Positions 8,123 to 24,217 of a stretch of 34,460 nucleotides of DNA are shown piece after piece. A program made the position numbers and the translations under genes. This DNA comes from Candidatus Izemoplasmatales bacterium (lineage in GTDB: Bacteria; Bacillota_I; Bacilli_A; Izemoplasmatales; Hujiaoplasmataceae). The stretch spans positions 1 through 34,460 of the forward strand of contig JBAYQC010000001.1 of assembly GCA_041677365.1 (NCBI GenBank), written 5' to 3'. The notes under the pieces are model-generated. The model had not been told where the DNA came from and searched no databases. It worked only from the letters and a program-made list of their open reading frames with translations. Within the stretch, counting starts at the first letter, position 1, and every line of letters begins with the position of its first letter.

Positions 8123-8757
8123 AAAATAATCGTTTAGAATTTGTAGTTAAAATTGTTTTCTTTGGGGCTTTATGGGGGTTAGTAGAAGCAACCCTTGGAT
8201 ATGCTTTGCATATATTACCAGCACTGATTGCTGGTAGTATCATGTTTCCAATTGTAATGGTGATACTATACCAAGCCTATAAAAGTTTAGACTCAAGAAA
8301 AGCAATTTTATTTGTTGGCTTTGTAGCAATCTTAATTAAATCATCAAATTTATTATTACCGTTCTTATTTCCGGCAAAAACTATCAATCCGATGATTGCG
8401 ATGTTTATTCAAAGCCTGCTTGCATTTGCGTTTATTCCTAACCTTTCAAGTTCGAGTATAGTTAAGAAAATTGCGATTTTAACCGGTATTAGCCTTACTT
8501 GGCGTTTAGGGATGATTGGTTATTATGCAATTAACTACTCTTTGACTAGTTTCTTAGACTTTAGAATTGCTAATTTTGATTCAGCACTTGCTTTTGTAGT
8601 TTTTGAAGGCTTGATTTCAGGTGCTTTTGCAATAATTCTAGTCATTGGCTATGAAAAATTTAAGCTTTTGGATCGAGTAAAAACCCTAAGAATTAATCCG
8701 ATTCTCTCAACCGTAGCTTTAGCCTTAGCCTTATTCTTCACTCTTTATAAGTTTTGA
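8119..8757 (+). CDS. Uncharacterised 6-7 TM membrane protein embedded in the Mo-hydroxylase/maturation block
   Basis: 212 aa and almost entirely hydrophobic helices. ATGA overlap with the Mo subunit stop. No family recognised. The size and topology resemble small substrate-capture/transport proteins, but this is only an impression. Confidence 0.6.
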   Translation: MKNNRLEFVVKIVFFGALWGLVEATLGYALHILPALIAGSIMFPIVMVILYQAYKSLDSRKAILFVGFVAILIKSSNLLLPFLFPAKTINPMIAMFIQSLLAFAFIPNLSSSSIVKKIAILTGISLTWRLGMIGYYAINYSLTSFLDFRIANFDSALAFVVFEGLISGAFAIILVIGYEKFKLLDRVKTLRINPILSTVALALALFFTLYKF

Positions 8758-8768
8758 AAGGATAGTCA

Positions 8769-9602
8769 ATGGATATTTTTAAATTAATCGCTGAATATAA
8801 ACAAAAAAACATTACGATGATGGCGATTACGGCTGTAAAAAAAGACGGAGCTGGACCTGTAGAAGTAGGAAAAAAACTCTTGTTATTTCCTGATGGGAAA
8901 AGTATTGGTACTGTCGGAGGCGGAGCGATTGAATACTACGCACAAAAAAAAGGTTTAGAACTTTTAGAAAAAAAGCAAAGTTTGCTTGAAACCTATGTTC
9001 TCGATGAAGGTAAGGTTCTTCCTGAGACTAAAACATTACCAATGGTTTGTGGAGGAGTTGTTACGCTTTTTTATGAGTATATTGGCCCAAAAGCAACTAT
9101 TTATATCTTTGGTGGCGGTCATGTTGGTCAAGCTTTGGTTAATGTTTTAAAAACTATGAATTACCACATTACCGTTATTGATGAAAGAAAGCCAATAATC
9201 GAGAAGTTTAACAACGCTGATGTCTTGGTAAATGAAGCTTTTGTTAGTTTTATCGAAAAAGACACAATTAAAGATGGTGATTATATCATCGTTTGTACCC
9301 CTAGTCATAAGTACGACTATCATGTAATAAATAAGATTCTTGAAAAAAAGCTGAAGCCAGCTTATTTAGGTATGCTTTGCTCACCGGATAAAATCAAAGG
9401 TTATTTGAAATCCACTTATGAAAAATTTGGAAAAGATATCGATTTAAGTTTCTTTTACTCACCGATTGGGTTAGATACCGGAGGTATGACTCCGGAGGAA
9501 ATTGCAATCTCAATAACTGCAGAAATTTTAGCTATCACTAACAAAAAAAGCGGTCATAAACATATGCGGGAGACCTTAGATGATCAAGATCATTACTGGT
9601 AA
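8769..9602 (+). CDS. xdhC: XdhC/CoxI-family Mo-hydroxylase maturation (Moco insertion) protein
   Basis: 277 aa. N-terminal XdhC_CoxI-like region (VGTVGGGAIEY) followed by a Rossmann-like domain (IYIFGGGHVGQAL ... VIDER). Confidence 0.8.
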   Translation: MDIFKLIAEYKQKNITMMAITAVKKDGAGPVEVGKKLLLFPDGKSIGTVGGGAIEYYAQKKGLELLEKKQSLLETYVLDEGKVLPETKTLPMVCGGVVTLFYEYIGPKATIYIFGGGHVGQALVNVLKTMNYHITVIDERKPIIEKFNNADVLVNEAFVSFIEKDTIKDGDYIIVCTPSHKYDYHVINKILEKKLKPAYLGMLCSPDKIKGYLKSTYEKFGKDIDLSFFYSPIGLDTGGMTPEEIAISITAEILAITNKKSGHKHMRETLDDQDHYW

Positions 9603-10047
9603 GATAAACTCATATAAAACCACTAGACTAATTGATTATTACCAAAATTATAAACAAGGTGACGGCTTCGCTAGTTTAAAAGTTATGCATAATGATATAG
9701 TTAAGGAATATAATCTTTTACATTTATCAAAGAATAAAAAAATTCCTTATATTAAAAGAAATAATCAAGATATTACCGAACCCGTTATTTATGAAATTGG
9801 ACCATATCGATTTTTAAAGAGTGCTTTTGATTATGTAGAAACTGAAATTGAGAAGATGATTGAAAAAAGAGTTGAACCAATATTTTTGGATGAGATTTCA
9901 TTATTAGAACTTAAAAATCAAGGTTTTCATCAGATTCTTATTAAATTATTAGCCGCTGATTTAGATTTGATTTTAGTTATCAGAAATGATCTTCTAATTG
10001 ACGTATTGGCTAAGTATCAGTTTAAGGATTATAAAATTATTAAGTAG
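9580..10047 (+). CDS. Small P-loop NTPase-like protein (THEP1/DUF2478/MobB-like) with degenerate Walker A
   Basis: 155 aa. The Walker A-like GKINSYKT (9598-9621) has Tyr in place of the second Gly of GxxxxGK[ST]. The Walker B-like IFLDEISLLEL resembles the hhhhDEIGxMEL of THEP1-type NTPases. 23-nt overlap with xdhC. Confidence 0.5.
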   Translation: MIKIITGKINSYKTTRLIDYYQNYKQGDGFASLKVMHNDIVKEYNLLHLSKNKKIPYIKRNNQDITEPVIYEIGPYRFLKSAFDYVETEIEKMIEKRVEPIFLDEISLLELKNQGFHQILIKLLAADLDLILVIRNDLLIDVLAKYQFKDYKIIK

Positions 10048-10059
10048 GAAGTGAGATAA

Positions 10060-11349
10060 TTGTTCGATAAAAGAATAATAAATGGTCAAGTTTTTTACGA
10101 CGATAAGTTTCATAAAACTAACCTTTATATCAAAGGCGAAAAAATCGCCAAAATTTCTTCAGAAAATTTTAATGCTAAAGAAACGATTGACGTAAAAAAT
10201 TCCCTTGTTTTACCTGGTTTAATTGACCCCCATGTTCACTTTGATCTCGACTTGGGAAAAATTCACTCGCGTGATGATTTTTATTATGGCAGTTTAGGAG
10301 CTTGTTTTGGTGGTGTAACCACTATCATTGATTTTTTAGATCCAGTTGATAAATGGGAAGATTTAGAAGCTGCTTATAAATCAAGGTTAAAAGCAGCTGA
10401 AACATCAGTAGTAGATTATCTTTTTCACGCAACAATAAAAAATCCTAAAGGGAGTTTAGAAGATTTTGTCTTAAAAATGAAAGAGTTAGGCATTAACTCG
10501 CTAAAACTTTTTACTACCTATTCTGATTCGAACCGAAGAACATATGATGAACAAATTATCGAACTTTTAAAATTATCTGAAAAATATAATTTCTTATTAT
10601 TAGCGCATATCGAACATGACGATTATATTGATTTAAATCCTCACTTTAAATACCAACAATTACTAAAATCACGTCCAACTCAAGCAGAGACTAAAGAAGC
10701 TTTAAAACTAGCTGGTTATGTTGAAAAATATGGTGGTTATCTCTATATGGTTCACTTAAGCAGTGGAGAAACGCTTAGGGCTTTGAAAAGAGAGTTCCCA
10801 ATGCTTTTAAACAAACGCTTTTTCATTGAGAGCTGTCCCCATTATTTTCTTTTCACCAACGATTTTTTAGAACGGTGCGATGGATTTTTATATACTTTAG
10901 CTCCACCTTTAAGAACAAGAAAAGAAAGAACGCTATTAAAGGATAGTTTTTCTGATATTTTCACTATCGGAACTGATCATTGTGCTTTTAATAGAAGTGA
11001 TAAAGATCATAAATATTTAAAAGATGTTCCCTTAGGTATCGGTAGTATCGAGTATTCATTCGATGTTTTGTTTGAACTCTTTAAACATAAAGCTATTGAT
11101 AAAATGAGCAAAAACATCGCGTGTCTTTATCCTTCTTTAATAGACCAAGGAGAAATTAAGGTCGGTAATAAAGCTAATATTTTTGTCTATGAACTCTATG
11201 ATAATTTCATTGATTTTCATCATGGAAAAACCGATTACAACCTCTATGAAAATTTCAAACGTTCAGGAAGAGTTATGCATACATTATTAAGAGGTGAGTT
11301 TATTGTTAAAAATCAAAAATATGTCGGTCATGGAGGAAAGAAACTATGA
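10060..11349 (+). CDS. hyuA: Cyclic amidohydrolase, D-hydantoinase/dihydropyrimidinase family (HyuA-like)
   Basis: 429 aa, TTG start. PGLIDPHVHFDLD..DDFYYGSLGACFGGVTTIIDF parallels E. coli HyuA (PGGVDVHTHFNID..DDFFTGTRAAACGGTTTIIDH). The carbamylatable Lys (SLKLFTTY), the His ligands (AHIEHDD, MVHLSS) and the Asp (GTDHCAF) are all present. Confidence 0.8.
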   Translation: MFDKRIINGQVFYDDKFHKTNLYIKGEKIAKISSENFNAKETIDVKNSLVLPGLIDPHVHFDLDLGKIHSRDDFYYGSLGACFGGVTTIIDFLDPVDKWEDLEAAYKSRLKAAETSVVDYLFHATIKNPKGSLEDFVLKMKELGINSLKLFTTYSDSNRRTYDEQIIELLKLSEKYNFLLLAHIEHDDYIDLNPHFKYQQLLKSRPTQAETKEALKLAGYVEKYGGYLYMVHLSSGETLRALKREFPMLLNKRFFIESCPHYFLFTNDFLERCDGFLYTLAPPLRTRKERTLLKDSFSDIFTIGTDHCAFNRSDKDHKYLKDVPLGIGSIEYSFDVLFELFKHKAIDKMSKNIACLYPSLIDQGEIKVGNKANIFVYELYDNFIDFHHGKTDYNLYENFKRSGRVMHTLLRGEFIVKNQKYVGHGGKKL

Positions 11350-12677
11350 AAGAAAGAAAAGTAAAAACATTTATTAATGCGAGAATTTACGACTATGATA
11401 AATACATTGAAAATGGCTTTATATCTTTTGATGAAAAAATCATTTCGATTGGTGATATGCAAGATTTCAAAGAAACTCAAGTAGAAGTAATTGATTTGAA
11501 AAATCAAATGGTCATTCCCAGTTTCATCAGTGGACATACCCACCTATATTCAAGTTTTGCTAGAGGAATGGCAAATGAGTTTAATCCGCAAAATTTCTTG
11601 GAAATACTTGAACAACTTTGGTGGAAACTAGATAATTTTCTTGATAAAAAGATGATTCATTTTTCCGCTTTAGTCGGCGCTATAGATCAACTGAAACACG
11701 GAACTACTACATTGATTGATCACCACGCTTCAAAAGTGATTTCAGGAAGTTTAGAACAAATAAAGTCGGCATTAAATGATAAGCTAAATTTGCGTTCAGT
11801 TTTAGCTTTTGAGACAAGTGACAGGTTTTTGATTTCTGAGGCAATCTCTGAAAATAGCGATTTTATTAAGAATAATCAATCTGAATTTATCAGTGGTTTA
11901 TTCGGTGCTCACGCTTCATTATCTTTAAGTGATCAAAGTTTAAAAATGATCTCGAGAAACTTAAATGGCGCAGGAATTCATATTCATGTCGCTGAAAGCT
12001 TAATGGATGAAGAAGATTCACTTAAGAAATATAATCTAAGAGTCGTAGAGCGGTTAGAGAAATTTAACCTTCTTAATGAAAAGTCTCTCTTAGTTCACTG
12101 TACACATATTAACGATAAAGAAATGGATATCATTAAGAAGTATGGTTGTCGAGTAGCGGTAAATGTTACTTCAAATTTAAATAACGCTGTAGGGATTACC
12201 AATATTAAAAAAATGCTCAATAAGGGAATTAAAGTAATTAGCGGTAATGATGGATTAATCCAATCACAACCGATGGAGTATTTAAATATTTACTATTTAT
12301 CACATCTTAAGACGCTTTCGCCAACAAATTTCTCTTTAGATGATATCTTAACGATTATTAATAACACTTATGAATATGCCAATCTAATGTTAAAGACAAA
12401 TCTCGGTAAATTCAAAGTAGGTGCAGAAGCAGATTTTTTAGTTACTGACTATCAGAATTTTACACCGATAACTAAAGAAAATATCTTTTCTCATCTGTTC
12501 TTTGGAGTTTATCCTGGATTTAGAGCTAAAGATGTCTTTGTTTCCGGAAAACAAGTAATCGAAAATTATCAATTAATCAATGATTATGATTCATTATATA
12601 AAGAAGCTAAATCCCAAGCACAAAAATTATGGGATATAGTTGAAAAGGAAGGTGGAAAAATTGAATTTAACTACTAA
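11346..12677 (+). CDS. ssnA: SsnA-family aminohydrolase (ATZ/TRZ chlorohydrolase-guanine deaminase superfamily)
   Basis: 443 aa. SGHTHLYSSFARGMA...LEQLWWKLD...TTTLIDHHAS parallels E. coli SsnA (CSHNHFYSGLSRGIMA...LKNLWWRLD...CTSVIDHHAS). Metal ligands HIHVAES, LVHCTH and GNDG are present. ATGA overlap with hyuA. Confidence 0.85.
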   Translation: MKERKVKTFINARIYDYDKYIENGFISFDEKIISIGDMQDFKETQVEVIDLKNQMVIPSFISGHTHLYSSFARGMANEFNPQNFLEILEQLWWKLDNFLDKKMIHFSALVGAIDQLKHGTTTLIDHHASKVISGSLEQIKSALNDKLNLRSVLAFETSDRFLISEAISENSDFIKNNQSEFISGLFGAHASLSLSDQSLKMISRNLNGAGIHIHVAESLMDEEDSLKKYNLRVVERLEKFNLLNEKSLLVHCTHINDKEMDIIKKYGCRVAVNVTSNLNNAVGITNIKKMLNKGIKVISGNDGLIQSQPMEYLNIYYLSHLKTLSPTNFSLDDILTIINNTYEYANLMLKTNLGKFKVGAEADFLVTDYQNFTPITKENIFSHLFFGVYPGFRAKDVFVSGKQVIENYQLINDYDSLYKEAKSQAQKLWDIVEKEGGKIEFNY

Positions 12678-13743
12678 ATTTGACGGATTAGAATTTAAGA
12701 ACCCTTTGATGCCAGCTGCAGGACCACTTAACGGTGATTATGAAAAATTAGAATTCTTGGTGGAACAAGACTTGGGCGGGATTGTAACTAAAACCATATC
12801 TAAAGAATTACCAAAAATACCAAAGCCTTGTATTTATGGTGATAAGACTTTTATTATGAATTCAGAACTATGGAGTGAACATAGTTATGAAACTTGGATA
12901 AATGATTTTTTACCAAAGTTTATGAAGATTAAAGATAGACCTTTGATTGTAAGTCTCGGTTATTCTAAGGAAGATATGGAATTTTTAGTTCCTAAACTTG
13001 ATAAATTCGCTGATGCTTTTGAAATATCTACTCATTACGTTGGAACGAATTTAGAAGTAATCAAAGATACTGTTAAAGCTATAAGAGCTAATACAAAAAA
13101 ACCGATTTACATGAAGATATCTCCACATATTCCTAATCCTGAAGGTTTTGCTAGAGCAATAAAAGAAGCTGGAGCTTCTGGAGTAGTGGCTATTAATTCT
13201 TTAGGACCAACAATGAAAATCGATTTAAAAACTAAAGCGATTATCTATAGCAATGATTCTGGTTTTGTCTGGACTAGTGGTCCAGCGATAAAACCGATTG
13301 CTTTAGCAACTGTTTATAAGATCAAACAAGCAGAGCCGACACTTACGGTAATTGGAGTTGGAGGAATTAAAACTGCCGATGATGTTTTGGAATTTTTATT
13401 GGCAGGTGCGTCTGCTGTCCAAATGTTATCAGCTGCTTTACTAACCGGTAAAGATTTATACGCAAAAATAATCAAGGATTTACCAAAAGCCTTAGAAAAA
13501 TATGGATTTAATAGTATTGAAGAAGTAATTAATCATGGATTAAAAAAGGAAGTTGTGTATAAAAGAAGTCTTCCAGTCTTAGACAAAGACAAATGTATTG
13601 ATTGTATGCTATGTCAAAAAATTTGTCCCTATTTTGCAATTGACTATCCGGGGGTAATTACTTTTAATCCGGATAAATGCTTTGAATGTGGACTATGTAT
13701 TGCCAAATGTCCGACTGGGGCAATAAGTTTTAATGAAAGGTGA
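12640..13743 (+). CDS. DHOD/DPD(PreA)-fold FMN flavoprotein with C-terminal 2x[4Fe-4S] ferredoxin domain; non-canonical active-site loop
   Basis: 367 aa. The DHOD class 1-like blocks FKNPLMPAAG, IVTKT, VVAINS, AIKPIAL and IGVGGI are present. The C-terminus carries CIDCMLCQKICP and CFECGLCIAKCP. The likely true start is the TTG at 12661 (MNLTTKF...), after GGAAGGTGG. Confidence 0.8.
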   Translation: MKRKVEKLNLTTKFDGLEFKNPLMPAAGPLNGDYEKLEFLVEQDLGGIVTKTISKELPKIPKPCIYGDKTFIMNSELWSEHSYETWINDFLPKFMKIKDRPLIVSLGYSKEDMEFLVPKLDKFADAFEISTHYVGTNLEVIKDTVKAIRANTKKPIYMKISPHIPNPEGFARAIKEAGASGVVAINSLGPTMKIDLKTKAIIYSNDSGFVWTSGPAIKPIALATVYKIKQAEPTLTVIGVGGIKTADDVLEFLLAGASAVQMLSAALLTGKDLYAKIIKDLPKALEKYGFNSIEEVINHGLKKEVVYKRSLPVLDKDKCIDCMLCQKICPYFAIDYPGVITFNPDKCFECGLCIAKCPTGAISFNER

Positions 13744-15833
13744 TTGATATGAGAGATATTTCGCGCTCAATAAATAAAGTTGATAACGATGAAAAGATGA
13801 GTGGTAGCGCTAAATATACCGCTGATTTAAGATATGAAAATATGCAATACGCTTATACCTTAAGGTCAAATATAGCTAAGGGAGAGATTGTTAGTATTGA
13901 TTACCCTAAACTTCCTGAAGGTTATTTTATCGTTGATCACTCAGATATTCCTGGTAAAAATATTGTCAAAGTTATCTATGATGACATGCCAATTTTCACT
14001 ACAGGAAAAATTAGTTATTTATACGAACCAATCGCTCTTATTGTTGGACCAGATAAAGCCGTGTTGAAAAAACTTATCGAAGAAGTTAAGGTTGAATATA
14101 AAATAGAAGAACCAATCTTTGCTTGGGAAGATAGTGTAATCCACTATGAGTTTTCTAAGGGCGAAGGTAAACTTGCTTTCGATAAACTTCAAACAGTTGA
14201 TTTTAATTACGAGACTTCTTATCAAGAACAAGCCTATATTGAACCACAAGGATTTGTCGCTTATATGGAAGGTGAAAAAACCACTTTGATTGGTTCAATC
14301 CAATGTCCATACTATGTGAAAAACGCTGTTATTCAAGCCTTAGGCGTTAGAGAAGATCTTGTAAGAGTTATCCAAGCTAATGTCGGCGGAGCTTTTGGTG
14401 GTAAGGAAGAGTTTCCTTCACTTTTAGCTTGTCAATTGGCAGTAGCTGTAAATAAAGTTAATAAACCAATCCAATTAATTTTTGAAAGAGAAGAAGATAT
14501 CTTAGTAACAACTAAAAGACATCCAGCAAAAATTAGTTTTAGAGCCGCAATTAAAGCAGGAAAAATTTATGCTTTAAGTGTAAAGGCGGGAATTGATGGT
14601 GGAGCGACTATCGGACTTAGCGGAGTAGTTTTATCCAGAGCACTAATCGCTTGTACTGGAGCTTATACAATTGATAATCTCGATGTCAGTGGTGATGTTT
14701 ATCGAACAAACACTGTACCTAATGGAGCTTTTCGAGGGTTTGGAGCGCCACAGATGTTTTTTGCGATTGATATGTTTGTTGAACACGTAGCTAAAACTTT
14801 AGGCGTTGATCCTTTAGAATTTAGGATAAAGCATTTGGCTAAACAAAATGATTTTACTTCAACAATGGGGATATTCAGAGATCCAATTTTAATGCCAGAA
14901 ATGATTGATAGGGCATTAAAGGACTCAAATTATAAAGCGAAACATAAACTTTATGAAAACGATGGAAGTTACCGTGGGATTGGAATGAGTTTGTTTTTCC
15001 ATGGTTGTGGTTTCACCGGTTCTGGTGAACAAAATATCATTAAAGCTAAAGTCAGACTTAAAAAGAGCGGCGACTTAGTAGAAATCTTAATCGCAGCTGT
15101 AGATATGGGTCAAGGTGTAAAAACTAGTTTTAGAAAATTAGTTGCACATATTTTACAGATTCCGATTGAACGGGTTATCTTTAATAATCCTGATACCGAT
15201 TTTGTGCCTGATTCAGGGCCAACAGTAGCTTCTAGAACAATGATGATTGTTGGCGGGTTAGTCGCAAGAGCTGCTAAAGAAGTAAAATCTCGTTTTTCAG
15301 AAAGTGAATTTATCGTTGAAAGACAATATGAACAACCTGAGTATATTAAGTATGATGAAGAAAACTTTAAAGGTGACGCTTATCCAGCTTATTCATGGGG
15401 AGTAAATGTTGTTGAAGTTGAAGTTGACAAATATACCTATCAAGTAAAAGTTAAGAAAGCTTGGTCATTCTATGATGTTGGTAAGGCTATTGACGAAAGA
15501 ATTGTTATTGGTCAAGCTGATGGAGGTTTAGCTCAAGGCTTAGCATATGGATATTTAGAGGTAATGCGTCATGAGTTAGGTTATATCAAGCAAAAGAACT
15601 TTACAGATTACATTATCCCTACGGCAATGGATATGCCTCCGATGGAAACTCATCTTTATGATAACCCATATGCCTTTGGTCCTTATGGAGCAAAGGGTGT
15701 CGGAGAACTATCTTTAATCGGTGGAGCTCCAGCAGTTGCTAAAGCTATAGAAAATGCAATTGGGAGAAAAGTTTTCAAAATACCAGTGACCTCAGAATAT
15801 ATTATGGAGTTGATAAATAATGGCGAAAATTAA
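13740..15833 (+). CDS. Xanthine dehydrogenase family, molybdopterin-binding large subunit, module 2 (canonical XDH catalytic triad)
   Basis: 697 aa. Blocks VGGAFGGKEE (about 14381-14416), AFRGFGAPQ (about 14725-14750) and C-terminal GAKGVGE. The likely start is the ATG at 13749, after GAAAGGTG. Confidence 0.9.
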   Translation: MIDMRDISRSINKVDNDEKMSGSAKYTADLRYENMQYAYTLRSNIAKGEIVSIDYPKLPEGYFIVDHSDIPGKNIVKVIYDDMPIFTTGKISYLYEPIALIVGPDKAVLKKLIEEVKVEYKIEEPIFAWEDSVIHYEFSKGEGKLAFDKLQTVDFNYETSYQEQAYIEPQGFVAYMEGEKTTLIGSIQCPYYVKNAVIQALGVREDLVRVIQANVGGAFGGKEEFPSLLACQLAVAVNKVNKPIQLIFEREEDILVTTKRHPAKISFRAAIKAGKIYALSVKAGIDGGATIGLSGVVLSRALIACTGAYTIDNLDVSGDVYRTNTVPNGAFRGFGAPQMFFAIDMFVEHVAKTLGVDPLEFRIKHLAKQNDFTSTMGIFRDPILMPEMIDRALKDSNYKAKHKLYENDGSYRGIGMSLFFHGCGFTGSGEQNIIKAKVRLKKSGDLVEILIAAVDMGQGVKTSFRKLVAHILQIPIERVIFNNPDTDFVPDSGPTVASRTMMIVGGLVARAAKEVKSRFSESEFIVERQYEQPEYIKYDEENFKGDAYPAYSWGVNVVEVEVDKYTYQVKVKKAWSFYDVGKAIDERIVIGQADGGLAQGLAYGYLEVMRHELGYIKQKNFTDYIIPTAMDMPPMETHLYDNPYAFGPYGAKGVGELSLIGGAPAVAKAIENAIGRKVFKIPVTSEYIMELINNGEN

Positions 15834-16293
15834 ATTTATTTTAAATAACCAGTCACAAGAAATTGATACGGATTTAAACCGAAGACTATTAGATGTTCTT
15901 AGAAATGACTTTAATCTTACTGGGCCAAAAGAAGGTTGTGGCGAAGGTGAGTGTGGTGCTTGTGCGGTATTACTTAATGGCAAAATTGTCAATTCTTGTT
16001 CAGTGCCTTTAGCAAATGTAGTAAGTAAAGAAATAATGACAATTGAAGGCTTTTCGCAAACAAAAAGATATGAAATAATCAAGGAAGCTTTTGCGGAAAT
16101 GGGTGGTGTACAATGTGGTTTTTGTACTCCAGGAATGATTATTGCAACTGAGAGTTTATTGAGACATAATCCGCATCCAACAATTGAAGAAATAAAAATT
16201 GGTTTATCAGGAAATCTTTGTCGTTGTACCGGGTACAACTTAATTGTTAAAGCGATTCAACAAGCAGCTAAAAAAGGTGATGGACTATGGTAG
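15820..16293 (+). CDS. Xanthine dehydrogenase family, 2x[2Fe-2S] small subunit, module 2
   Basis: 157 aa. Motifs GCGEGECGACAV...C and QCGFCTPGM...CRCTGY are present. 14-nt overlap with the upstream gene. Confidence 0.9.
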   Translation: MAKIKFILNNQSQEIDTDLNRRLLDVLRNDFNLTGPKEGCGEGECGACAVLLNGKIVNSCSVPLANVVSKEIMTIEGFSQTKRYEIIKEAFAEMGGVQCGFCTPGMIIATESLLRHNPHPTIEEIKIGLSGNLCRCTGYNLIVKAIQQAAKKGDGLW

Positions 16294-17126
16294 AAGCATA
16301 TGTGCCTAAAAACTTAAAAGCAGCTTTAGAAATGCTTCATGAGAAAAGTTTAAGGATAGTTGCGGGTGGAACAGATATGTTGATTCAAAACCGTAATCGA
16401 TCTGGACTACCAATTAATTTTAAAAGTGATATATTATATGTTTTCGATTTAGAAGAGTTAAAAAGAATCGAAGAAGATAGTGAATTTTTATATATCGGAG
16501 CTAGTTGTTCTTTAGAGAGTATCTTAGAAAACAAACTCACACCCGAACTTTTAAAGATGACGATTTTAGAAATGGCATCACCAGCAATTAGAAATACCGG
16601 AACTTTAGCTGGTAATATTGCTAATGCATCACCAGCAGGGGATGGGATTGTCACTTTAGTATTGGAAGACGCGTTATTAGAAATTCAATCAATAAATCAC
16701 CTGCGAAGAGAAAAAGTTCAGGATTTTATTCAAGGAGTTAGAAAGATTAACTTAAATTCTGATGAGTTAATAACTAAAATTATCATTCCTAAAGTTACAT
16801 TTGATAAAGCTTATTTTAAAAAGGTTGGTCCAAGACTTAGCGACGCTATTTCTAAAGTTGCTTTTGCAGGCGCAATTAAATTTGAAGACACGATTGTTAA
16901 AGACTTTCGGATTTGTCTTGGAGCTGTAAATATCAAAATGGTTCGCGATTCAGCAATTGAAAAAAAATATATAGGAAAAACTAAAAAGGAATTGCAAGGT
17001 TTAATTTCCCAAATTTTAAATGATTATTCGCCTTTAATCAAACCAATTGATGATCAGCGTTCAAATAAAGAATATCGCAAACAAGTCAGTTTGAATTTGA
17101 TTCAAGAATTTATCGAAAATTTATAG
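16287..17126 (+). CDS. Xanthine dehydrogenase family, FAD-binding subunit, module 2
   Basis: 279 aa. Blocks VAGGTDMLIQ and GTLAGNIANASPAGD are present, and the C-terminal DQRSNKEYRK is typical of the CO-DH flavoprotein C-domain. Confidence 0.85.
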   Translation: MVEAYVPKNLKAALEMLHEKSLRIVAGGTDMLIQNRNRSGLPINFKSDILYVFDLEELKRIEEDSEFLYIGASCSLESILENKLTPELLKMTILEMASPAIRNTGTLAGNIANASPAGDGIVTLVLEDALLEIQSINHLRREKVQDFIQGVRKINLNSDELITKIIIPKVTFDKAYFKKVGPRLSDAISKVAFAGAIKFEDTIVKDFRICLGAVNIKMVRDSAIEKKYIGKTKKELQGLISQILNDYSPLIKPIDDQRSNKEYRKQVSLNLIQEFIENL

Positions 17127-17146
17127 GGAATTTAGGAGGTATCTAC

Positions 17147-18868
17147 TTGAACAAAACTAAGTTACTAAAAGTTGCTAAAGGTGAGATAAAAGCTGATATC
17201 GTGTTGAAAAATGCTCAGTTAATCAATGTCTTTACCAAAGATATTGAGAGTGGAAATTTAGCTATCTCTGATGGCATAATTATTGGGGTTGGTAACTACA
17301 AAGGCGAAATAGAATATGATTATAGTGGGTACTTTTTAGCACCTGGTTTTATCGATGGACATGTCCATATAGAATCTTCAATGTTAATCCCACCTTATTA
17401 CGCTCAAGCTGTTTTACCAAGAGGAACTACTTCAGTAGTCGCAGATTGTCATGAAATAGCAAATGTTTTAGGTATTAAAGGTATTGATTTTATGTTGGAA
17501 GCTAGTGAAAACATTCCCTTAGATGTTTTTATGATGATACCTTCTTGTGTTCCTTCAACTAAATATGAAACTTCAGGGGCTGTACTTAAAGCTCAGGATT
17601 TAAAAAAATATGTTGATAATGACAGAGTCTATGGTCTAGGAGAAATGATGGATTACCCTGGAGCAATCAATGGTGAAAAGGAAGTACTAAAGAAGATTGA
17701 TGCTTTTGCCCATAAAACAATTGATGGTCATGCACCATTAATCATGGAAAAAGACCTTAATGCTTATGTGTTATCCGGTGTTAAAACCGATCATGAATGC
17801 ACGGTTCCAGAAGAACTTATTGAAAAGGTTAAACGAGGTATGTACATTCATTTAAGAGAAGGTTCACAGACGAAAAATATAGTTGATTTATTACCGGGTG
17901 TAAACCCTAGTATCTATCAAAGAATATTGTTTTGTTCGGATGATTTACATCCATCAGATATAAAGAAAACTGGGCATATCGACAACAATATCAATATAGC
18001 TATTAAAAGTGGTATACCGCCAGTTGAAGCGATATCAATGGCAACGATTAATATTGCTAATTGCTATAGGCTTAAAGATGTTGGAGCTATCGCTCCAGGA
18101 TATAAAGCCGATTTAGTAGCTTTTAAAGATATTAATAATATTGAAATTATTGATGTCTTTAAAGCCGGTAATTTAGTCGTTAAAAATAAAAAGACTTGCT
18201 TTAAAGTAAAAGAAGTAGATACTATGAAAGTAGAAGATACGGTTAAGATAAATTTGGCTAGTGTAAATCTTGCTTTTAATTTAAAATCTAATTACATAAA
18301 AGTAATCGGTTTAATTAAAAATAATGTCACTACAAAAATGTTAGAAGAGACTGTAAAGTTAAATCAGGGTCGGTTCCTACCAAAAGAAAATCCTGGTTTA
18401 CTAAAACTAGTTGTTTTAGAAAGACATAAACTAAGTGGCAATATCGGAAAAGCTATTGTGAGAGGCTATGGTTTGAAAAATGGAGCCTTAGCATTGACTA
18501 TCGCTCATGACAGTCATAATTTAATCTGCATCGGTGATAATAACCCTGATATGCTCAAAGCGATCTTTACAATAAAAGACATCGGCGGAGGAATTGTGCT
18601 GGTAAGTGAAGGAAAAGTAATTGAAACTCTACCTTTAGAAGTAGGGGGATTGATGTCTAAAAAACCTCAAGAGTTTGTGATTGAAAGATTAGAAAGTCTA
18701 GAGAGCAATCTAAAAAAACTTGGAGTGAATCATGAAATTGAAGATCCGATTCTACAACTAGCATTTTTATCATTGCCAGTAATTCCCGAATTAAAGTTGA
18801 CTGATATGGGTCTATTTGATGTTAGAAAATTTAAAATTACATCAATTGAGGTAGGTGAAGATTCTTGA
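17147..18868 (+). CDS. ade: Adenine deaminase (amidohydrolase superfamily, AdeC-type)
   Basis: 573 aa, the same size as B. subtilis AdeC. PGFIDGHVHIESSML is present, and the two-domain length and the overall block order fit the family. Confidence 0.85.
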   Translation: MNKTKLLKVAKGEIKADIVLKNAQLINVFTKDIESGNLAISDGIIIGVGNYKGEIEYDYSGYFLAPGFIDGHVHIESSMLIPPYYAQAVLPRGTTSVVADCHEIANVLGIKGIDFMLEASENIPLDVFMMIPSCVPSTKYETSGAVLKAQDLKKYVDNDRVYGLGEMMDYPGAINGEKEVLKKIDAFAHKTIDGHAPLIMEKDLNAYVLSGVKTDHECTVPEELIEKVKRGMYIHLREGSQTKNIVDLLPGVNPSIYQRILFCSDDLHPSDIKKTGHIDNNINIAIKSGIPPVEAISMATINIANCYRLKDVGAIAPGYKADLVAFKDINNIEIIDVFKAGNLVVKNKKTCFKVKEVDTMKVEDTVKINLASVNLAFNLKSNYIKVIGLIKNNVTTKMLEETVKLNQGRFLPKENPGLLKLVVLERHKLSGNIGKAIVRGYGLKNGALALTIAHDSHNLICIGDNNPDMLKAIFTIKDIGGGIVLVSEGKVIETLPLEVGGLMSKKPQEFVIERLESLESNLKKLGVNHEIEDPILQLAFLSLPVIPELKLTDMGLFDVRKFKITSIEVGEDS

Positions 18869-20112
18869 GTTATAAATTAGCATATCGCTGCACCATATGC
18901 AATAAGAAATATCCAGTTGATAAGGAACTATATACCTGCCCCGAATGCGGAGAAACTGGAATTTTAGATATTGAATATGATTATAAAAAAATCGCTGAAG
19001 TATTCACTAAAGCAAAACTTAGTTCGTCAAAAGAATACTCTTTATGGCGTTATCTTCCCCTTTTACCAGTTGAAGAAAGTTTCACAAAGAATTCATTAAG
19101 GGTTGGCTGGACTCCGCTTTATAAATTCGCTGATTTAGCATTGAAGTATAATACTAAAGCTATATATATTAAAGATGATGGACAAAATCCTACTCAATCT
19201 TTAAAGGATAGAGCAAGCGTAGTCGCTTGCGTAAAAGCGTTGGAGTTAAATCAAAAAGTCATCTCCTGTTCCTCGACTGGAAATGCCGCTTCCTCTTTAG
19301 CGGGCAATGCCGCCAAAATGGGATTGAAAACAGTGATCTTTGTTCCGGAGCGAGCCCCAATTGGAAAATTAACCCAGATTCAAGCTTTTGGGTCTCAATT
19401 AATAAAAGTAAAAGGTGACTATAAAGCTGCTTATGAGATGTCAAAGGCGGCGATAAACCACTTCGGATTTTATAATCGTAACGCTGCTATTAACCCTAAT
19501 CTAATCGAGGGAAAGAAAACTGTAGCTTTAGAAATTGCTGAACAACTTAATTTTAAGCCGACTGAGTGGATAGTTGTTTCAGTTGGAGACGGCTGCACAA
19601 TTGGTGGAGTATACAAAGGGTTTTATGACCTTTTTAATTTGAATTTTATCAAAAAAATCCCTAAAATTTTAGGTGTACAAAGCAGTGGTTGTAACCCCTT
19701 TTATCAGGCATATAAAAATAATTTAGATTATTTAGAAGAAACAGATGAGCTTACAGTCGCCGACAGTATTTCTGTAGGCATACCGAGAAACCCTGTTAAG
19801 GGATTAAATGCTGTAAAAAAATCCCAAGGAGCTTTTATTGAGGTAAGCGATGAAGAGATTTTAAGCGCAATCAAAGAATTAGCTTCACAAACGGGAATTT
19901 TTGCTGAACCTGCAGCAGCAGCTAGTTTTGCTGGATTTAAGAAAGCAAGACGTAAAGCCATAATTAGTAGCGAAGAAGAAGTAACAATTATCATAACCGG
20001 TAACGGACTTAAAGACCCTAATAACGCTAGAAAAGTTCTTGAAGAACCTTTAGCAGTTGAACCAGTTTTTGAAAAAATTAAACATATTTTAAATATAGAA
20101 AGAAGGACATAA
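18865..20112 (+). CDS. Threonine-synthase-family fold-type II PLP enzyme with N-terminal Cys4 zinc ribbon
   Basis: 415 aa. CTIC-x16-CPEC ribbon (from 18889), LWRYLPLLPV, PLP-lysine block PTQSLKDRAS, and SSTGNAASSLA. TTG start overlapping the ade stop. Confidence 0.75.
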   Translation: MSYKLAYRCTICNKKYPVDKELYTCPECGETGILDIEYDYKKIAEVFTKAKLSSSKEYSLWRYLPLLPVEESFTKNSLRVGWTPLYKFADLALKYNTKAIYIKDDGQNPTQSLKDRASVVACVKALELNQKVISCSSTGNAASSLAGNAAKMGLKTVIFVPERAPIGKLTQIQAFGSQLIKVKGDYKAAYEMSKAAINHFGFYNRNAAINPNLIEGKKTVALEIAEQLNFKPTEWIVVSVGDGCTIGGVYKGFYDLFNLNFIKKIPKILGVQSSGCNPFYQAYKNNLDYLEETDELTVADSISVGIPRNPVKGLNAVKKSQGAFIEVSDEEILSAIKELASQTGIFAEPAAAASFAGFKKARRKAIISSEEEVTIIITGNGLKDPNNARKVLEEPLAVEPVFEKIKHILNIERRT

Positions 20113-20115
20113 TTT

Positions 20116-21468
20116 ATGAGCAAAATACCATTTGGACCAACTTATGACGAGATGGCTAATCCCAGTCACATTGATCCTAAAATTCGTAAAAAAGCATTAG
20201 CGGGAAAACAAGATGAACTAGATCCAATTAATCTTTTCAACATCAATTGGAAAGATGATGAAAATAAGGTTCACAAAATTGTTTTACCAAAAGCACTGAC
20301 AAATGTTGACAGTAATATTGTTGTATTGATTGGAAAACACTTCCCAAGTGGGTCACACAAAGTTGGGCCTGCTTATTCTACTTTAATTGAAGGCTGTGTT
20401 GATCAAACGATTCTCCCGGGAAAGCATACTATCTTAGGACCATCAACAGGAAACTTTGGTATCGGAGTATCCTATATTTGTAATTTAATGAAGTATGATT
20501 CAATTGTAATCATGCCCGATAATATGAGTAAAGAAAGATACCAAAGAATCAAAAAATATGGAGCTAAACTAGACCTTACTCCTGGTACTGAATCGGATGT
20601 TATTCTTACACTTGAAAGAACTTTTGAACTTAAAAAAGATCCTAAAAACAGATCACTTGCACAGTTTGAACTTCTACCTAATTATCGTTTCCATCGCCAT
20701 GTTACTGGACAGGCTTGTGTTGAAGCAGTTAAAGGGATAGGGAACGGCCGAATAGCGTGTTTTGCATCGGCACCAGGTTCTGCGGGAACTTTAGCTGCAG
20801 GAGACCATATTAAGACAGTTTATCCAGAAGCAAAAATCGCTGCTTTAGAACCATATGAATGTTCAACTTTAATGAATGGTGGTAGAGGACAACATCGAAT
20901 CGAAGGTATTGGTGATAAGATGTGTACCTTAATTCACAATGTATTAAATACTGATTTCATTGCTTTAATTAAAGATGAGGAATCTGTTCAAGGTTTAAAG
21001 ATTATTCATGATGGAATGAATATATTAATTGAAAATGGAGTTGACCCATTAGTAGCTAAAGAGATGCAAGAATTATTTGGGGTTTCCGGTATCTGTAATA
21101 TTATCGGTGCGATTAAAATGGCAAAATTTTTAAAACTCGGACCTGATGATAATATCGTTACTGTCGCAACTGATGGATTCGATCGTTATGAAACCGTACT
21201 TCACGATTTGAATAAACGTTATTTAGAAACAGAAGATTTTGTTTTAAGAAGATGGTTCAAGGATATCTTTGTTAAAACTGAAACTAATGATATTGCTGAT
21301 TATCGACCGATTTCTCAAAAAGAAAAACTCTTTAAACAAAAAGAGAAGGATTGGTTGAAGTTCGGGTATGCTCAAGAATACCTTGATGCAATGCGAAATA
21401 TGAGTTTTTGGGATCGAGAATATCAAAAGGTATTTCATTACGATGAATTAATCAAGAAGTTGAGATAG
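20116..21468 (+). CDS. Fold-type II PLP enzyme, 450 aa (cysteine-synthase/TrpB superfamily; possibly the OrtB-like lyase/thiolase group)
   Basis: Blocks [12 protein letters not shown] (candidate PLP Lys), [10 protein letters not shown] and [11 protein letters not shown] (phosphate loop) are present. It has N- and C-terminal extensions relative to CysK. The OrtB-like assignment is from memory only. Confidence 0.6.
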
Positions 21469-21478
21469 AGGTGAAATT

Positions 21479-22696
21479 ATGATTTATGAAAAGATTTATG
21501 AACTTAGTAAAAAGTATGAAAAAGATATGACTAAATTCTTAAGGGATATGATTAGGATTCCTAGTGAGAGTTGTGGTGAAAAAGAAGTCATCCAAAGAAT
21601 TAAACAAGAAATGGAAAAAGTTGGTTTCGATGAAATAAGAATTGACAAGATGGGAAACATCATCGGAAGAGTCGGTAGTGGAAAGCACTTAATTGCAATG
21701 GATGCTCATATCGATACTGTAGGAATTGGTGAAATAAAAAACTGGAAATTTGATCCTTATGAAGGTTTTGAGGATGATGAGTTAATTGGTGGTAGAGGTG
21801 GTTCTGACCAAGAAGGCGGTATGGCTTCTATGGTTTATGCCGGAAAGATAATCAAAGAGTTAAACTTGGATAAAGAGTATACACTTTTGATTACTGGAAC
21901 TGTTCAAGAAGAAGATTGCGATGGTTTGTGTTGGCAATACTTAATTGAACAAGAAAATATTCGTCCAGAGTTTGTAGTTATAACTGAGCCTACTAATTTA
22001 AATATTTATCGTGGACATCGTGGAAGAATGGAAATTAAAGTTTCAACAAGTGGAATTTCTTGTCACGGAAGCGCTCCTGAAAGAGGCGACAACGCAATTT
22101 TTAAAATGGCTCCGATTCTTTTAGAACTACAAGAGCTAAACAAGCGTTTATTAGATAATGCATTTTTAGGAAAAGGCACTTTAACTGTTAGTGAAATTTT
22201 TTACTCTTCACCTTCTCGCTGTGCTGTAGCTGATGGGTGCGCCGTGTCTATTGATCGAAGATTGACTGATGGAGAAACTTATCTTAGTGCAATTAAAGAA
22301 ATTGAAGAATTAGAATCAGTGAAGAAAGCCAATGCTAAAGTAGAAATGTATGAGTATGCTAGACCATCTTACACAGGTTTAGTTTATCCTACAGAAGCAT
22401 ATTTTCCTACTTGGGTCATTCCTGAAGATCATATAATTACAAAAACTAGTGTTGAAGCTTACCGTAGTTTATTTAATCAAGAACCTTTGGTTGATAAATG
22501 GACATTTTCAACTAACGCTGTTTCAATTATGGGACGACATAATATTCCTTGTATTGGTTTTGGCCCTGGTAAAGAAGAGCAAGCTCACGCACCAAACGAG
22601 GTAACTTATAAAGAACATTTAGTTAAAGCTTGTGCAATGTATGCTTCAATACCTTTAACTTATATAAATAATTTAAAAGAAGGAGAGAAAAAATAA
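21479..22696 (+). CDS. ygeY: YgeY-family M20 metallohydrolase (selenium-metabolism-linked hydrolase family name)
   Basis: 405 aa. It is collinear over nearly its whole length with my memory of E. coli YgeY. Examples: [19 protein letters not shown] vs [61 protein letters not shown] and [17 protein letters not shown]. Confidence 0.9.
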
Positions 22697-23679
22697 TGAA
22701 ACCACTATTTAAAGGCAAACACTTCATTACCTTAGAGGAATGGGATAAATCAGAAATTGATAAACTCTTGGAAGTATCCAAGGAGTTTAAACGCAAATTC
22801 TATGCTAATGAAGAAACTGATTATTTAAAGAACAAAACTGCATTTTTAATGTTTTTTGAACAATCTACAAGAACAAGAAATTCAATGGAAGCTGGACTAG
22901 CGCAAATGGGCGGTCATGCAGTTTTCTTAGATACTTCAAAAATGCAAATAGCTCATGGCGAAAGCGCAAAAGATACTGCAGTAATTCTTTCATCTTATGG
23001 TCATGGAATTGCTTGTAGAAACTGTTTTTGGGGAGTAGGTAATAAGTTCTTGCGAGAAATGGCGGCTAATTCAACAGTCCCAATTATGAGTTTACAATGT
23101 GACCTTTATCATCCAATGCAAGGTTTAGCGGATTTGATGACAATTCAAGAGGTTTCTAAATCTACTAAAAACCTTAAAGTGTCAATCATATGGGCTTATG
23201 CAACGACGCATAAAAAACCAATTTCAGTACCTTTAACACAAGTTCTATTGTTTCCAAGATATGGCATGGATGTTACTATTGCTTATCCAGAAGGTTATGA
23301 TTTACCTGAATGGGTTTTTGAAAAAGCGAAGAAAAATGCAATTGAAAATGGTGGTTGTTTTAAAATAACTCATAATATGGAAGAGGCTTATAAAGATGCT
23401 GATATCGTAATCCCTAAGAACTGGGGTTCATGGGTTAATAATCAATCTGACGCTGTAGTTGATGATTTATTAAAAAGTTATAAATCTTGGAAATGTACGG
23501 ATGAAATGATCGCTCTAGCAAGTAAAGATGTAAAATATATGCATGCTTTACCTGCTGATAGAGGTAATGAAGTAACCGATAGTGTTATCGACGGGTCACA
23601 CTCAATAGTATATCAAGAAGCAGAAAACCGGATTCATACTGCAAAAGCGGTTATGGCCATGACCATGGGTGACAAATAA
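22696..23679 (+). CDS. ygeW: YgeW-like carbamoyltransferase (ATCase/OTCase superfamily)
   Basis: 327 aa. STRTR and HPMQ motifs are present. The central blocks QIAHGESAKDTA, SLQCDLYHPMQGLADL, IIWAYATTHKKPISVP and YGMDVTIAYPEGYDL, plus MEEAYKDADIVIPKNW, track E. coli YgeW. The C-terminus HALPADRGNEVTD...AENR is OTCase-like. Confidence 0.8.
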   Translation: MKPLFKGKHFITLEEWDKSEIDKLLEVSKEFKRKFYANEETDYLKNKTAFLMFFEQSTRTRNSMEAGLAQMGGHAVFLDTSKMQIAHGESAKDTAVILSSYGHGIACRNCFWGVGNKFLREMAANSTVPIMSLQCDLYHPMQGLADLMTIQEVSKSTKNLKVSIIWAYATTHKKPISVPLTQVLLFPRYGMDVTIAYPEGYDLPEWVFEKAKKNAIENGGCFKITHNMEEAYKDADIVIPKNWGSWVNNQSDAVVDDLLKSYKSWKCTDEMIALASKDVKYMHALPADRGNEVTDSVIDGSHSIVYQEAENRIHTAKAVMAMTMGDK

Positions 23680-24217
23680 ACCGCTAATGAGAATTTTTAT
23701 TGCGCTGTTATTTCCCGAAGCTATTAAAGAAAAGCTTTACTCAGTTATTAATGAATGTAAAGATAACTTTCCCGGAAATTATACAGCTTATAATAATTTA
23801 CATCTGACCCTACATTATCTTGGAGAAGTTAGTGAAGATAAACTAAATTTACTAAAAGAAAGCATTAAGGAAATAGAATTTCCAAGTTTTACTTATACAG
23901 CAAAGAAGATTGATAGTTTCAAAAACAATAAAGCAAAAAAGATTGTACATCTAAGAGTGGAAAAATCGACATATTTAAAAATGCTTCATCAGAAAGTAAT
24001 CAATCTATTGTATGGTTTAGGATTTGAATTGGAAAATACTAACTTCACTCCTCACATAACTTTAGGTAGAAAAGTAGAGGTAAGTCATGAAGATTTATTG
24101 AATATAGAGTTCAATAAATTACTTATCCCAGCGACAAGAATAAGTATTATGGAAAGTAAAAGAATTAATGACGAACTGGTTTATGAAGAGATAGAGTTTG
24201 TTGATTTGATAAAATAA
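23669..24217 (+). CDS. thpR: RNA 2',3'-cyclic phosphodiesterase (ThpR/LigT, 2H phosphoesterase)
   Basis: Two HxTx motifs are present (HLTLHYLG and HITLGR). The typical N-terminus MRIFIAL begins at the ATG at 23687, which is a likelier start than the GTG at 23669. Confidence 0.8.
   Translation: MTNKPLMRIFIALLFPEAIKEKLYSVINECKDNFPGNYTAYNNLHLTLHYLGEVSEDKLNLLKESIKEIEFPSFTYTAKKIDSFKNNKAKKIVHLRVEKSTYLKMLHQKVINLLYGLGFELENTNFTPHITLGRKVEVSHEDLLNIEFNKLLIPATRISIMESKRINDELVYEEIEFVDLIK

Follow-up and report, generated by a model that had tools for sequence, protein, structure and literature searches.

In a 34,460-nucleotide stretch of the genome of a Candidatus Izemoplasmatales bacterium (assembly GCA_041677365.1, contig JBAYQC010000001.1, positions 1 to 34,460 of the forward strand; hereafter the window), an operon for the reductive degradation of urate carries two adjacent genes for fold-type II pyridoxal phosphate (PLP) enzymes at the place usually held by the gene for diaminopropionate ammonia-lyase (DpaL, or YgeX). 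The first, here called P1 (18865-20112, + strand, 415 aa), is a zinc-ribbon protein resembling threonine synthase (ThrC), and the second, P2 (20116-21468, + strand, 450 aa), resembles cysteine synthase (CysK). The arrangement is real and strongly conserved. With two unnamed PLP families that are mislabelled in the databases, the operon represents a version of a recently solved pathway whose terminal part differs from those described so far. On balance, we consider it probable that P1 and P2 carry the last steps of this variant pathway, with P1 as the equivalent of DpaL, and P2 as an additional enzyme of the beta-lyase type coupled to the hydrolase YgeY. We place both genes in the operon on direct observation, and infer their catalytic roles.

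An account of the reductive urate (2,8-dioxopurine) pathway was first published in 2025 (10.1101/2025.05.19.654654). According to that work, XdhD yields 2,8-dioxopurine, YgfK or UacX together with SsnA leads to ureidomethylhydantoin, HyuA to 2,3-diureidopropionate, and YgeW or UacY together with YgeY to 2,3-diaminopropionate (DAP), from which YgeX/DpaL produces pyruvate and ammonia, with YqeA using carbamoyl phosphate to generate ATP. The pathway runs through D-configured intermediates, and YgeX of E. coli takes both enantiomers (10.1101/2025.05.19.654654); the known intermediates are all C3 compounds without a gamma position. The same work provided the definition of a pathway cluster that we adopted, namely a xanthine dehydrogenase (XDH)-type enzyme, YgfK or UacX, SsnA, HyuA, YgeY, and a carbamoyltransferase or UacY. 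ThrC-like or CysK-like proteins find no mention in the 2025 descriptions of this pathway, and one 2025 study scored YgeX in gene neighborhoods merely as PF00291, the generic PALP domain.

Position and junctions of the two genes

P1 and P2 belong to a single operon-like block of + strand genes (4014-23679), in which they are found between the genes for adenine deaminase (17147-18868, +; TIGR01178, 595 bits over a cutoff of 472) and YgeY (21479-22696, +). The latter is an M20 hydrolase predicted to remove one ureido group, scores 690 bits with TIGR03526 (cutoff 321), and is 72% identical to E. coli YgeY. It is followed by the gene for a 327-aa unknotted carbamoyltransferase of the ornithine carbamoyltransferase (OTC) kind (22696-23679, +; OTCace_N and OTCace domains) in place of the knotted YgeW; this protein falls below every NCBIfam cutoff and is 35% identical to E. 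coli YgeW. The XDH-type, UacX, SsnA, HyuA, YgeY, and carbamoyltransferase components of the pathway are all present between 4014 and 23679, and the terminal YgeX/DpaL is missing: tblastn searches with the E. coli proteins found no DpaL homologue anywhere in the window, and no carbamate kinase either, a gene that follows that of the OTC-like carbamoyltransferase in two related loci (L060 and L078). The initial annotation of this DNA had placed the P1-P2 pair in the usual position of DpaL, and gene order bears this out, as E. coli has ygeW-ygeX-ygeY and E. faecalis hydA-dpaL-ygeY, with dpaL directly upstream of ygeY.

Direct reading of the junctions showed a purine-rich ribosome-binding site ahead of each start. 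The TGA of the adenine deaminase gene (18866-18868) overlaps the TTG with which P1 starts (18865-18867), the TAA of P1 is separated from the ATG of P2 by a 3-nt spacer (TTT) preceded by AGAAGGA, and 10 nt, which include AGGTGA, lie between the TAG of P2 and the ATG of ygeY. P1 and P2 are translationally coupled. The start/stop overlap and the short spacer had been described correctly at the outset, as had the motifs quoted for both proteins and the long terminal extensions of P2. An antisense open reading frame (ORF) of 131 aa (19728-20123, -), located almost entirely within P1 and reaching 11 nt beyond its stop, is taken as spurious.

P1, a ThrC-like protein with an altered pocket

P1 is a fold-type II PLP protein of the ThrC kind, with the catalytic lysine in the lysine block and a match of 240 bits to the Pfam PALP domain. 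Its motifs include LWRY (residues 60-63), STGNAASS, and NPTQSLKDR, which contains the PLP-binding lysine K114 (19204-19206, +); this residue aligns with K61 of T. thermophilus ThrC (1uim, 2zsj), and is a lysine in 73/73 orthologues. With ThrC (EC 4.2.3.1; short bacterial and zinc-ribbon PRK08197 types) P1 shares the fold (2zsj, 6nmx, 1v7c), the S-x-K-D-R lysine block, the STGN loop, the EG-x-KT motif, and the architecture with an N-terminal C4 ribbon. The cysteines of this zinc ribbon (C9, C12, C25, and C28; 18889-18948, +), all four invariant in 26 relatives, read C9-x2-C12-x12-C25-x2-C28 in the translation, and the x16 spacing first reported for it needs to be corrected to x12. The AF2 model of P1 has a pLDDT of 89, and its top Foldseek matches are ThrC structures, with TM scores of 0.87-0.92 when normalised to the target and 0.74-0.78 when normalised to the query. 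P1 orthologues are called threonine synthase in all sources, and P1 scores 206 bits with TIGR00260, above the cutoff of 167. With PRK08197, the best-matching equivalog, it reaches 271 bits, below the cutoff of 303, and the remaining ThrC equivalogs also failed.

The sequence of the substrate pocket argues against threonine synthase activity. Five solved ThrC structures, from Thermus, Aquifex, Mycobacterium, Bacillus, and Arabidopsis, all have T88, S155, R160, and N188 (Thermus numbering), and P1 carries T88A, S155A, R160L, and N188D relative to these. Among the 73 orthologues, T88A, R160L/M, and N188D are found in 73/73 and S155A in 72/73, with G190C and Q164K likewise fixed; over the whole P1 group, the differences from ThrC amount to T88A, S155A, R160L/M/T/Q, N188D, G190C/V, and Q164K. 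The same signature is present in 16 metagenomic P1-like genes of urate clusters, and in haloarchaeal genes. Because these pocket residues are replaced, P1 probably no longer binds a phospho-substrate and would not be a threonine synthase. Such a conclusion agrees with the initial view that P1 is not a housekeeping enzyme for threonine, and at the same time makes unlikely the gamma-phosphorylated substrate that had been considered for it, due to the loss of residues that solved ThrC structures keep without exception. A crude neighbor-joining tree, furthermore, excludes all 27 sequences with the P1 signature from the clade that the four true ThrC form (95/100), and unlike ThrC, P1 is encoded in catabolic purine operons and not with thrB or hom, neither of which was found in the window or in 80 related loci.

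P1 is not a DpaL either. Of the NCBIfam models for DpaL (PRK08206, TIGR03528, and TIGR01747), it scores 52.9 bits with PRK08206 (cutoff 276), and its partial alignments with YgeX show 22-27% identity. P2 reaches 25.3 bits with PRK08206 and 21.5 bits with a second model whose cutoff is 532, so that the initial statement that neither protein resembles DpaL holds for both.

P2, a CysK-like protein with terminal extensions

P2 matches PALP with 74 bits. Its PLP-binding lysine, K82 in SGSHKVG (20359-20361, +), was identified by alignment to the PLP lysine of CysK and is invariant in two family alignments, and S110-T-G-N113 (within STGNFGIG), Q183, and G221-S-A-G-T225 similarly align with CysK and are invariant in the first of these two alignments. 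In comparison to CysK, CysM, and CysK-like enzymes such as beta-cyanoalanine synthase, SbnA, and Fn1055, P2 retains the PLP lysine, the S-T-G-N loop, the Q of the QF motif, the G-S-A-G-T phosphate loop, and the S-G motif near N1, but has Phe for Thr after the Asn loop, a catabolic genomic setting, and about 60 extra residues at the N-terminus and about 90 at the C-terminus, in a family whose members measure 427-562 aa. These extensions (approximately residues 1-60 and 360-450) are real because CysK structures in the PDB match P2 only over residues ~61-362 (E ~1e-27), and they are conserved down to 28% identity.

Although P2 orthologues are labelled as cysteine synthase family in the databases, P2 passes no curated family cutoff, and its best NCBIfam match is cysK at 124 bits (cutoff 351), with cysM at 80 bits (cutoff 394); neither a CysK/CysM-level score nor the single domain of ~300 aa typical of those enzymes was found. 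An exhaustive search of 1.84 billion representatives returned only 107 relatives at E<1e-30, among which are full-length proteins of 427-562 aa, with 28-46% identity and both extensions, and none of the ten relatives tested reached a curated NCBIfam cutoff. By these comparisons, P2 is a member of a distinct and unnamed CysK-derived family. The OrtB-like label given to P2 at first was not substantiated, as no OrtB family is among its NCBIfam matches and no OrtA-like gene stands by P2 in any locus; ornithine-fermentation genes were not seen either. OrtB, the beta subunit of 2-amino-4-ketopentanoate thiolase, does share with P2 the fold type II and a similar length. A role for P2 in selenium delivery was also considered and rated low, as P2 is found among the catabolic genes and not with MocA, XdhC, and the maturation genes; the canonical cluster of E. 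faecalis has dedicated sclA, selD, and yedF genes, which also counts against such a role.

Conservation of the module in close relatives

Close relatives are represented by 80 genome loci whose P2 is at least 73% identical to that of the window. These loci span Izemoplasmatales, Acholeplasmataceae, Erysipelotrichaceae, other Bacillota, and Acididesulfobacillus, and in every one of them with enough flank P1, P2, YgeY, and the OTC-like carbamoyltransferase are encoded in the same order and on the same strand. The genes of the module overlap or nearly abut, with median gaps of -8 nt (P1 to P2), -1 nt, and +3 nt, and are usually preceded by HyuA-SsnA-UacX (or YgfK)-XDH-(Ade). P2 itself is 73-88% identical across the 80 loci, and 78-100% identical among the 120 best database proteins. 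The pair is thus tightly linked to ygeY and to a carbamoyltransferase, and DpaL was not found in 79 of the 80 loci. Expression data in the literature are also available for one such cluster: in cultured Xianfuyuplasma coldseepsis (cluster G4Z02_01105-01195), genes annotated as threonine synthase, cysteine synthase, OTC, aminohydrolase, XDH, and deaminase are up-regulated together, in cells given organic nutrient plus thiosulfate (PMC8397711).

Distant relatives and other gene combinations

A more distant P2 relative (P0253, 34% identity) was used singly to fetch 80 metagenome loci. P2 relatives of this type (33-42% identity to P2) are located in urate clusters, where a knotted YgeW is encoded immediately upstream in 36 loci and YgeY immediately downstream in 13, with the complete order YgeW-P2-YgeY in 7; the latter puts P2 in the very slot of ygeX in the E. 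coli ygeW-ygeX-ygeY order, and resembles the dpaL-ygeY pair of E. faecalis. The YgeW proteins beside these distant P2 are 63-70% identical to E. coli YgeW, and the single one scored reached 674 bits. Whereas these clusters possess a true knotted YgeW, that of the window has the unknotted OTC-like enzyme, and it may be that the ureido groups are removed in a different order in the two settings. P1-type genes with the same signature (37-46% identity) were seen in 16-17 of these loci, mostly not adjoining P2. In the 18 metagenome loci with full 6-kb flanks, P1 is present in 6, bona fide DpaL in 2, and both in 0, and 10 have neither within 6 kb. SsnA was found in only 5 of the 18 loci and missed in 13, which indicates that the clusters reach beyond the fetched flanks and that absence within 6 kb says little. 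P1 and P2 may act sequentially or as a complex, as first suggested; their genes are adjacent and overlapping in Mycoplasmatota and Bacillota, but not adjacent in many other urate clusters.

A P1-type gene of 41% identity, with the motifs STGNAA, NAAINPFQ, and GDGCT, is carried by haloarchaeal megaplasmids of Haloterrigena (pHTUR01, L170; HTUR_RS19450), Haloarcula (pNG700, L171), and Haladaptatus (L173), where it is the only PALP gene of the cluster; P2 and DpaL were not found within up to 31 kb of it. The haloarchaeal cluster comprises SsnA-like and HyuA-like amidohydrolases, an LLM-class (F420-type) reductase, a D-aminoacylase, and a Zn hydrolase, and further holds the F420 reductase NpdG, XDH, adenine deaminase, and purine permeases. 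The whole resembles a reductive urate cluster in an archaeal form of F420/LLM type.

The closest out-group of P2 is found in Chloroflexi (46% identity). In 4/6 of these loci (L082-L084 and L086, two of them near-identical) the P2 relative is directly preceded by a zinc-ribbon ThrC-like protein of 490 aa, which has the motif GSHKGRH, is only 24% identical to P1, and is encoded outside purine clusters; in two loci the pair adjoins or faces a DctPQM TRAP transporter. Loci L085 and L087 have no ThrC-like partner, and a 115-aa gene upstream of the P2 relative in L085, examined as a possible OrtA or zinc-ribbon partner, gave only weak, sub-threshold zinc-ribbon matches. P2-family genes of 34-35% identity are also carried, outside purine clusters, by alphaproteobacterial plasmids of Bosea (L168) and Rhizobium (L169), in the company of TauE/SafE sulfite exporters, M20 peptidases, RidA, and GGT. 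There are hints here that this plasmid branch functions in the catabolism of sulfonated or N-acylated amino acids, and the M20 peptidase, TauE/SafE, and RidA neighbors would fit a lyase acting on beta-substituted alanines. The Bosea plasmid also has an ORF for a DpaL-like protein, which is missing from the PLSDB table.

Proposed roles of P1 and P2

PLP genes were found in five combinations. DpaL stands by itself in E. coli and E. faecalis, and P1 in the haloarchaea; P2 is accompanied by P1 in the window and in most loci, and by DpaL in L092 and L151 (by a DpaL-like gene in L168); L078 has all three. The simplest reading of these combinations is that P1 and DpaL are interchangeable for the step from DAP to pyruvate. 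In the route that we propose, the upstream steps are assigned by homology to characterised enzymes and the PLP step is inferred. The XDH-type enzymes and adenine deaminase would funnel purines to 2,8-dioxopurine, UacX and SsnA would reduce the purine and open its ring, and the HyuA-like enzyme would deliver 2,3-diureidopropionate. YgeY, by hydrolysis, and the OTC-like carbamoyltransferase, by phosphorolysis to carbamoyl phosphate, would then take off the two ureido groups and leave DAP, which P1 and P2, in place of YgeX/DpaL, would turn into pyruvate and ammonia.

P1 would in this route be a ThrC-derived equivalent of DpaL whose phosphate pocket has been rebuilt (Arg to Leu, Ser/Thr to Ala, Asn to Asp). 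An external aldimine would form at K114, the beta-amino group would be eliminated, and the aminoacrylate released would be hydrolysed to pyruvate and ammonia. P2, translationally coupled to YgeY, could act as a second enzyme of beta-elimination or beta-replacement, with a product of YgeY bearing a free alpha-amino group as its most likely substrate, either one enantiomer of DAP or 3-ureidoalanine (albizziin). The two proteins might thus divide between them the work done alone by the D/L-bispecific YgeX, and our guess is that the division is either by stereoisomer or between DAP and 3-ureidoalanine. We also entertain, tentatively and as something that could well turn out otherwise, a joint reading in which the variant contains a catalytic step absent from the E. 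coli and Clostridium pathway; P2 would then represent a new CysK-like family of 427-562 aa with an undescribed activity, such as a PLP lyase for albizziin or a fold-type II DAP racemase or epimerase that feeds a stereospecific lyase, and P1 an independent second invention of diaminopropionate ammonia-lyase on a ThrC scaffold.

Known enzymes offer partial precedents for these roles. DpaL/YgeX (EC 4.3.1.15) is likewise a fold-type II PLP enzyme encoded next to ygeY and a carbamoyltransferase, it catalyses the step that is needed (C3 diamino acid to pyruvate and ammonia), and it alternates with P1 beside P2-type genes; by score, however, P1 and P2 fall outside its family, two proteins stand in place of one, and a few clusters have DpaL together with P2-type genes. 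Cysteate synthase (9k3c, CapA2), itself homologous to ThrC, shows that a ThrC scaffold can be repurposed for a beta-substituted alanine of three carbons. P1, however, scores 99 bits with TIGR03844 (cutoff 325) and lacks the pocket residues, while the substrate of cysteate synthase is still a phosphorylated one, O-phosphoserine. In cysteate dissimilation, the racemase CuyB, the D-specific sulfo-lyase CuyA, and RidA lead to pyruvate (PMC11193023). The latter is an example of a two-enzyme solution, with a stereochemical conversion followed by beta-elimination, and serves as a lead only, as CuyB is PLP-independent, CuyA belongs to the D-cysteine desulfhydrase branch, and neither is related in sequence to P1 or P2.

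Competing explanations

Several observations weigh against the assignment of P1 as the DpaL equivalent and P2 as an additional lyase. In locus L078 (Acididesulfobacillus), P1, P2, and a DpaL of 56% identity are encoded side by side, and a bona fide DpaL that passes the DpaL models accompanies a P2-type gene in L092 and L151 as well as in L078; on the Bosea plasmid (L168), a DpaL-like gene lies near the P2-type one, at 37% identity to E. coli YgeX and not scored against the DpaL models. The absence of DpaL refers to the window and the fetched loci, and dpaL, a true thrC, ridA, and arcC are possible elsewhere in these genomes. The P1-type gene of the haloarchaeon Salinigranum lies outside a purine cluster, as do most of the Chloroflexi relatives of P2. 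The phylogenetic placement that the initial annotation called for separated P1 from true ThrC, but the same crude tree leaves the P1 group unresolved as a clade (45/100). The AF2 model of P2 is poor (pLDDT 60), and Foldseek returned CysK-type matches only, at TM scores of ~0.3-0.36 (query-normalised) and 0.40-0.53 (target-normalised) that do not inform on the extensions. Moreover, T88, S155, R160, and N188 are residues that we take, after the T. thermophilus structures with a substrate analogue, to hold the phosphate of O-phosphohomoserine, and a literature search gave no confirmation of this. Finally, P1 and P2 both have Thr (S-T-G-N) at the position of D120 of E. coli DpaL (TTDGNHG in E. coli YgeX), which is the second catalytic base of that enzyme.

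In a rival reading P2, and not P1, is the protein that replaces DpaL and converts the DAP released by YgeY to pyruvate and ammonia, with P1 in an accessory role, for example as a racemase or epimerase, or as a lyase for a side product. We regard this as unlikely, yet as deserving serious attention. P2 does occupy the ygeX slot, either directly upstream of ygeY or between knotted ygeW and ygeY, it is conserved about as highly as YgeY in the 80 loci, at 73-88%, CysK-type chemistry runs via aminoacrylate, and the RidA and sulfite-exporter neighbors of its plasmid relatives suggest beta-elimination. The 10/18 full-flank metagenome loci with neither P1 nor DpaL within 6 kb also speak for it, although SsnA was missed in 13 of the same 18 and absence over this distance says little. 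On the other hand, P2 would be redundant with DpaL in L078, L092, and L151, and with the DpaL-like protein in L168, and such co-occurrence implies that P2 is no simple substitute for DpaL; the haloarchaeal clusters, furthermore, have P1 alone, without P2. It is rather improbable that P2, together with P1, forms an anabolic or salvage branch, in which DAP or aminoacrylate would be captured and turned by beta-replacement into cysteine (with sulfide), serine, or a DAP derivative instead of pyruvate. Enzymes of the CysK family are typically beta-replacement catalysts, and the ThrC cycle is generally known to end with the addition of water; these are, besides, organisms of sulfidic sediments, the X. 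coldseepsis cluster was induced with organic nutrient plus thiosulfate (PMC8397711), and the co-occurrence of P2 and DpaL in some clusters would permit a branch point. Such a branch is at odds with the 80 loci, all of which keep the pair strictly coupled to catabolic genes in an operon, and with the haloarchaeal clusters, in which P1 is the sole PLP enzyme and the route to pyruvate is still needed, and a gene that could supply the acceptor was not seen nearby.

The initial annotation itself had favored a beta/gamma-elimination of the ThrC type, with a purine-derived amino acid in phosphorylated, carbamoylated, or ureido form as substrate, assisted by an OrtB-type partner that cleaves a C-C bond, and this we now judge very improbable. 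The P1-P2 pair is indeed conserved within a purine operon, and the P1 pocket derives from one for a five-atom side chain, with Asp for Asn, which could suit a ureido group such as that of albizziin. The loss of the invariant pocket residues, however, makes a phospho-substrate unlikely, the C3 nature of the known intermediates leaves no gamma position to act upon, both ureido groups are already accounted for by YgeY and the carbamoyltransferase, and there is no OrtA-like partner, no OrtB family match for P2, and no thiolase or CoA gene. Least credible of all, in our opinion, is that the database names are right and that a threonine synthase and a cysteine synthase lie near purine genes by chance or through nitrogen co-regulation. 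Agreement of all sources on the two names, a clear ThrC fold, and the P1 score above the TIGR00260 cutoff (206 against 167 bits) speak for it; these are to be set against the replacement of four invariant ThrC pocket residues in 72-73/73 P1 orthologues, the 124 of 351 bits that P2 reaches for cysK and its two extra conserved segments, a gene order with ygeY and the carbamoyltransferase that distant relatives keep as well as the 80 loci from several taxonomic orders, and the absence of thrB, hom, and cysE from the window.

Other features of the window

The operon begins (4014-10047, +) with genes for MocA, a first XDH-type enzyme with FAD, 2Fe-2S, and Mo components (XdhA-like, 647 bits), a 212-aa protein, an XdhC-like maturation factor, and an NTPase-like protein of 155 aa, as identified by family searches. 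Family and homology searches then place a HyuA-like hydantoinase (10060-11349, +), an SsnA-like aminohydrolase (11346-12677, +), and a UacX/PydA-like reductase with a 4Fe-4S domain (12640-13743, +), whose roles are given after 10.1101/2025.05.19.654654, and a second XDH-type molybdoenzyme with Mo, 2Fe-2S, and FAD subunits (13740-17126, +; family searches) completes the series up to the adenine deaminase. The operon therefore has two separate XDH-type molybdoenzymes (4568-8122 and 13740-17126), of which the second is more divergent and the first, at 34-36% identity, the closer one to XdhD and XdhA of E. coli. In four related loci (L022, L023, L061, and L078) the UacX (PydA-like) reductase is swapped for a full-length YgfK at the same position, 41-46% identical to that of E. 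coli, with the remainder of the operon unchanged. The XdhC-like gene is flanked by those for the 212-aa protein (8119-8757), which has no family match, and for the 155-aa NTPase-like protein (9580-10047); both are found again in some related loci (L025, L055, L065, and L079), and they may serve in cofactor maturation in the manner of YqeB and YqeC.

Two further genes border the operon. A gene for a LigT/ThpR-type 2',3'-cyclic phosphodiesterase (23669-24217) overlaps the end of the carbamoyltransferase gene and keeps this position in many Izemoplasmatales loci, with no obvious link to purine base catabolism. Upstream, a gene for a Firmicute-type fructose-1,6-bisphosphatase (PF06874; 1891-3844) is broken into two ORFs, of which 1891-3153 covers positions 1-410 of the profile and 3230-3844 covers positions 442-638. 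The frame of the second continues upstream as IPLTEDGKFATQVLHGESYYGK, which indicates a frameshift near 3120-3150, and the split gene is either a pseudogene or an assembly error.

Implications

The reductive urate pathway is of medical interest, as gut bacteria clear urate through it, and of ecological interest for sediment bacteria that feed on DNA. Scoring YgeX by a generic PALP domain conceals many clusters that have no DpaL at all, and if P1 and P2 do carry out the terminal steps, prediction of this pathway in Mycoplasmatota, many Bacillota, haloarchaea, and numerous uncultured lineages needs both families. Of the 240 closest database proteins, nearly all that are named at all bear the names threonine synthase or cysteine synthase, as do, in all likelihood, many of the thousands of further relatives; if our reading is true, these names mislead predictions of amino-acid auxotrophy. 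It would also mean that there are two new PLP specificities to study, including a clean case of a ThrC scaffold without its phosphate pocket.

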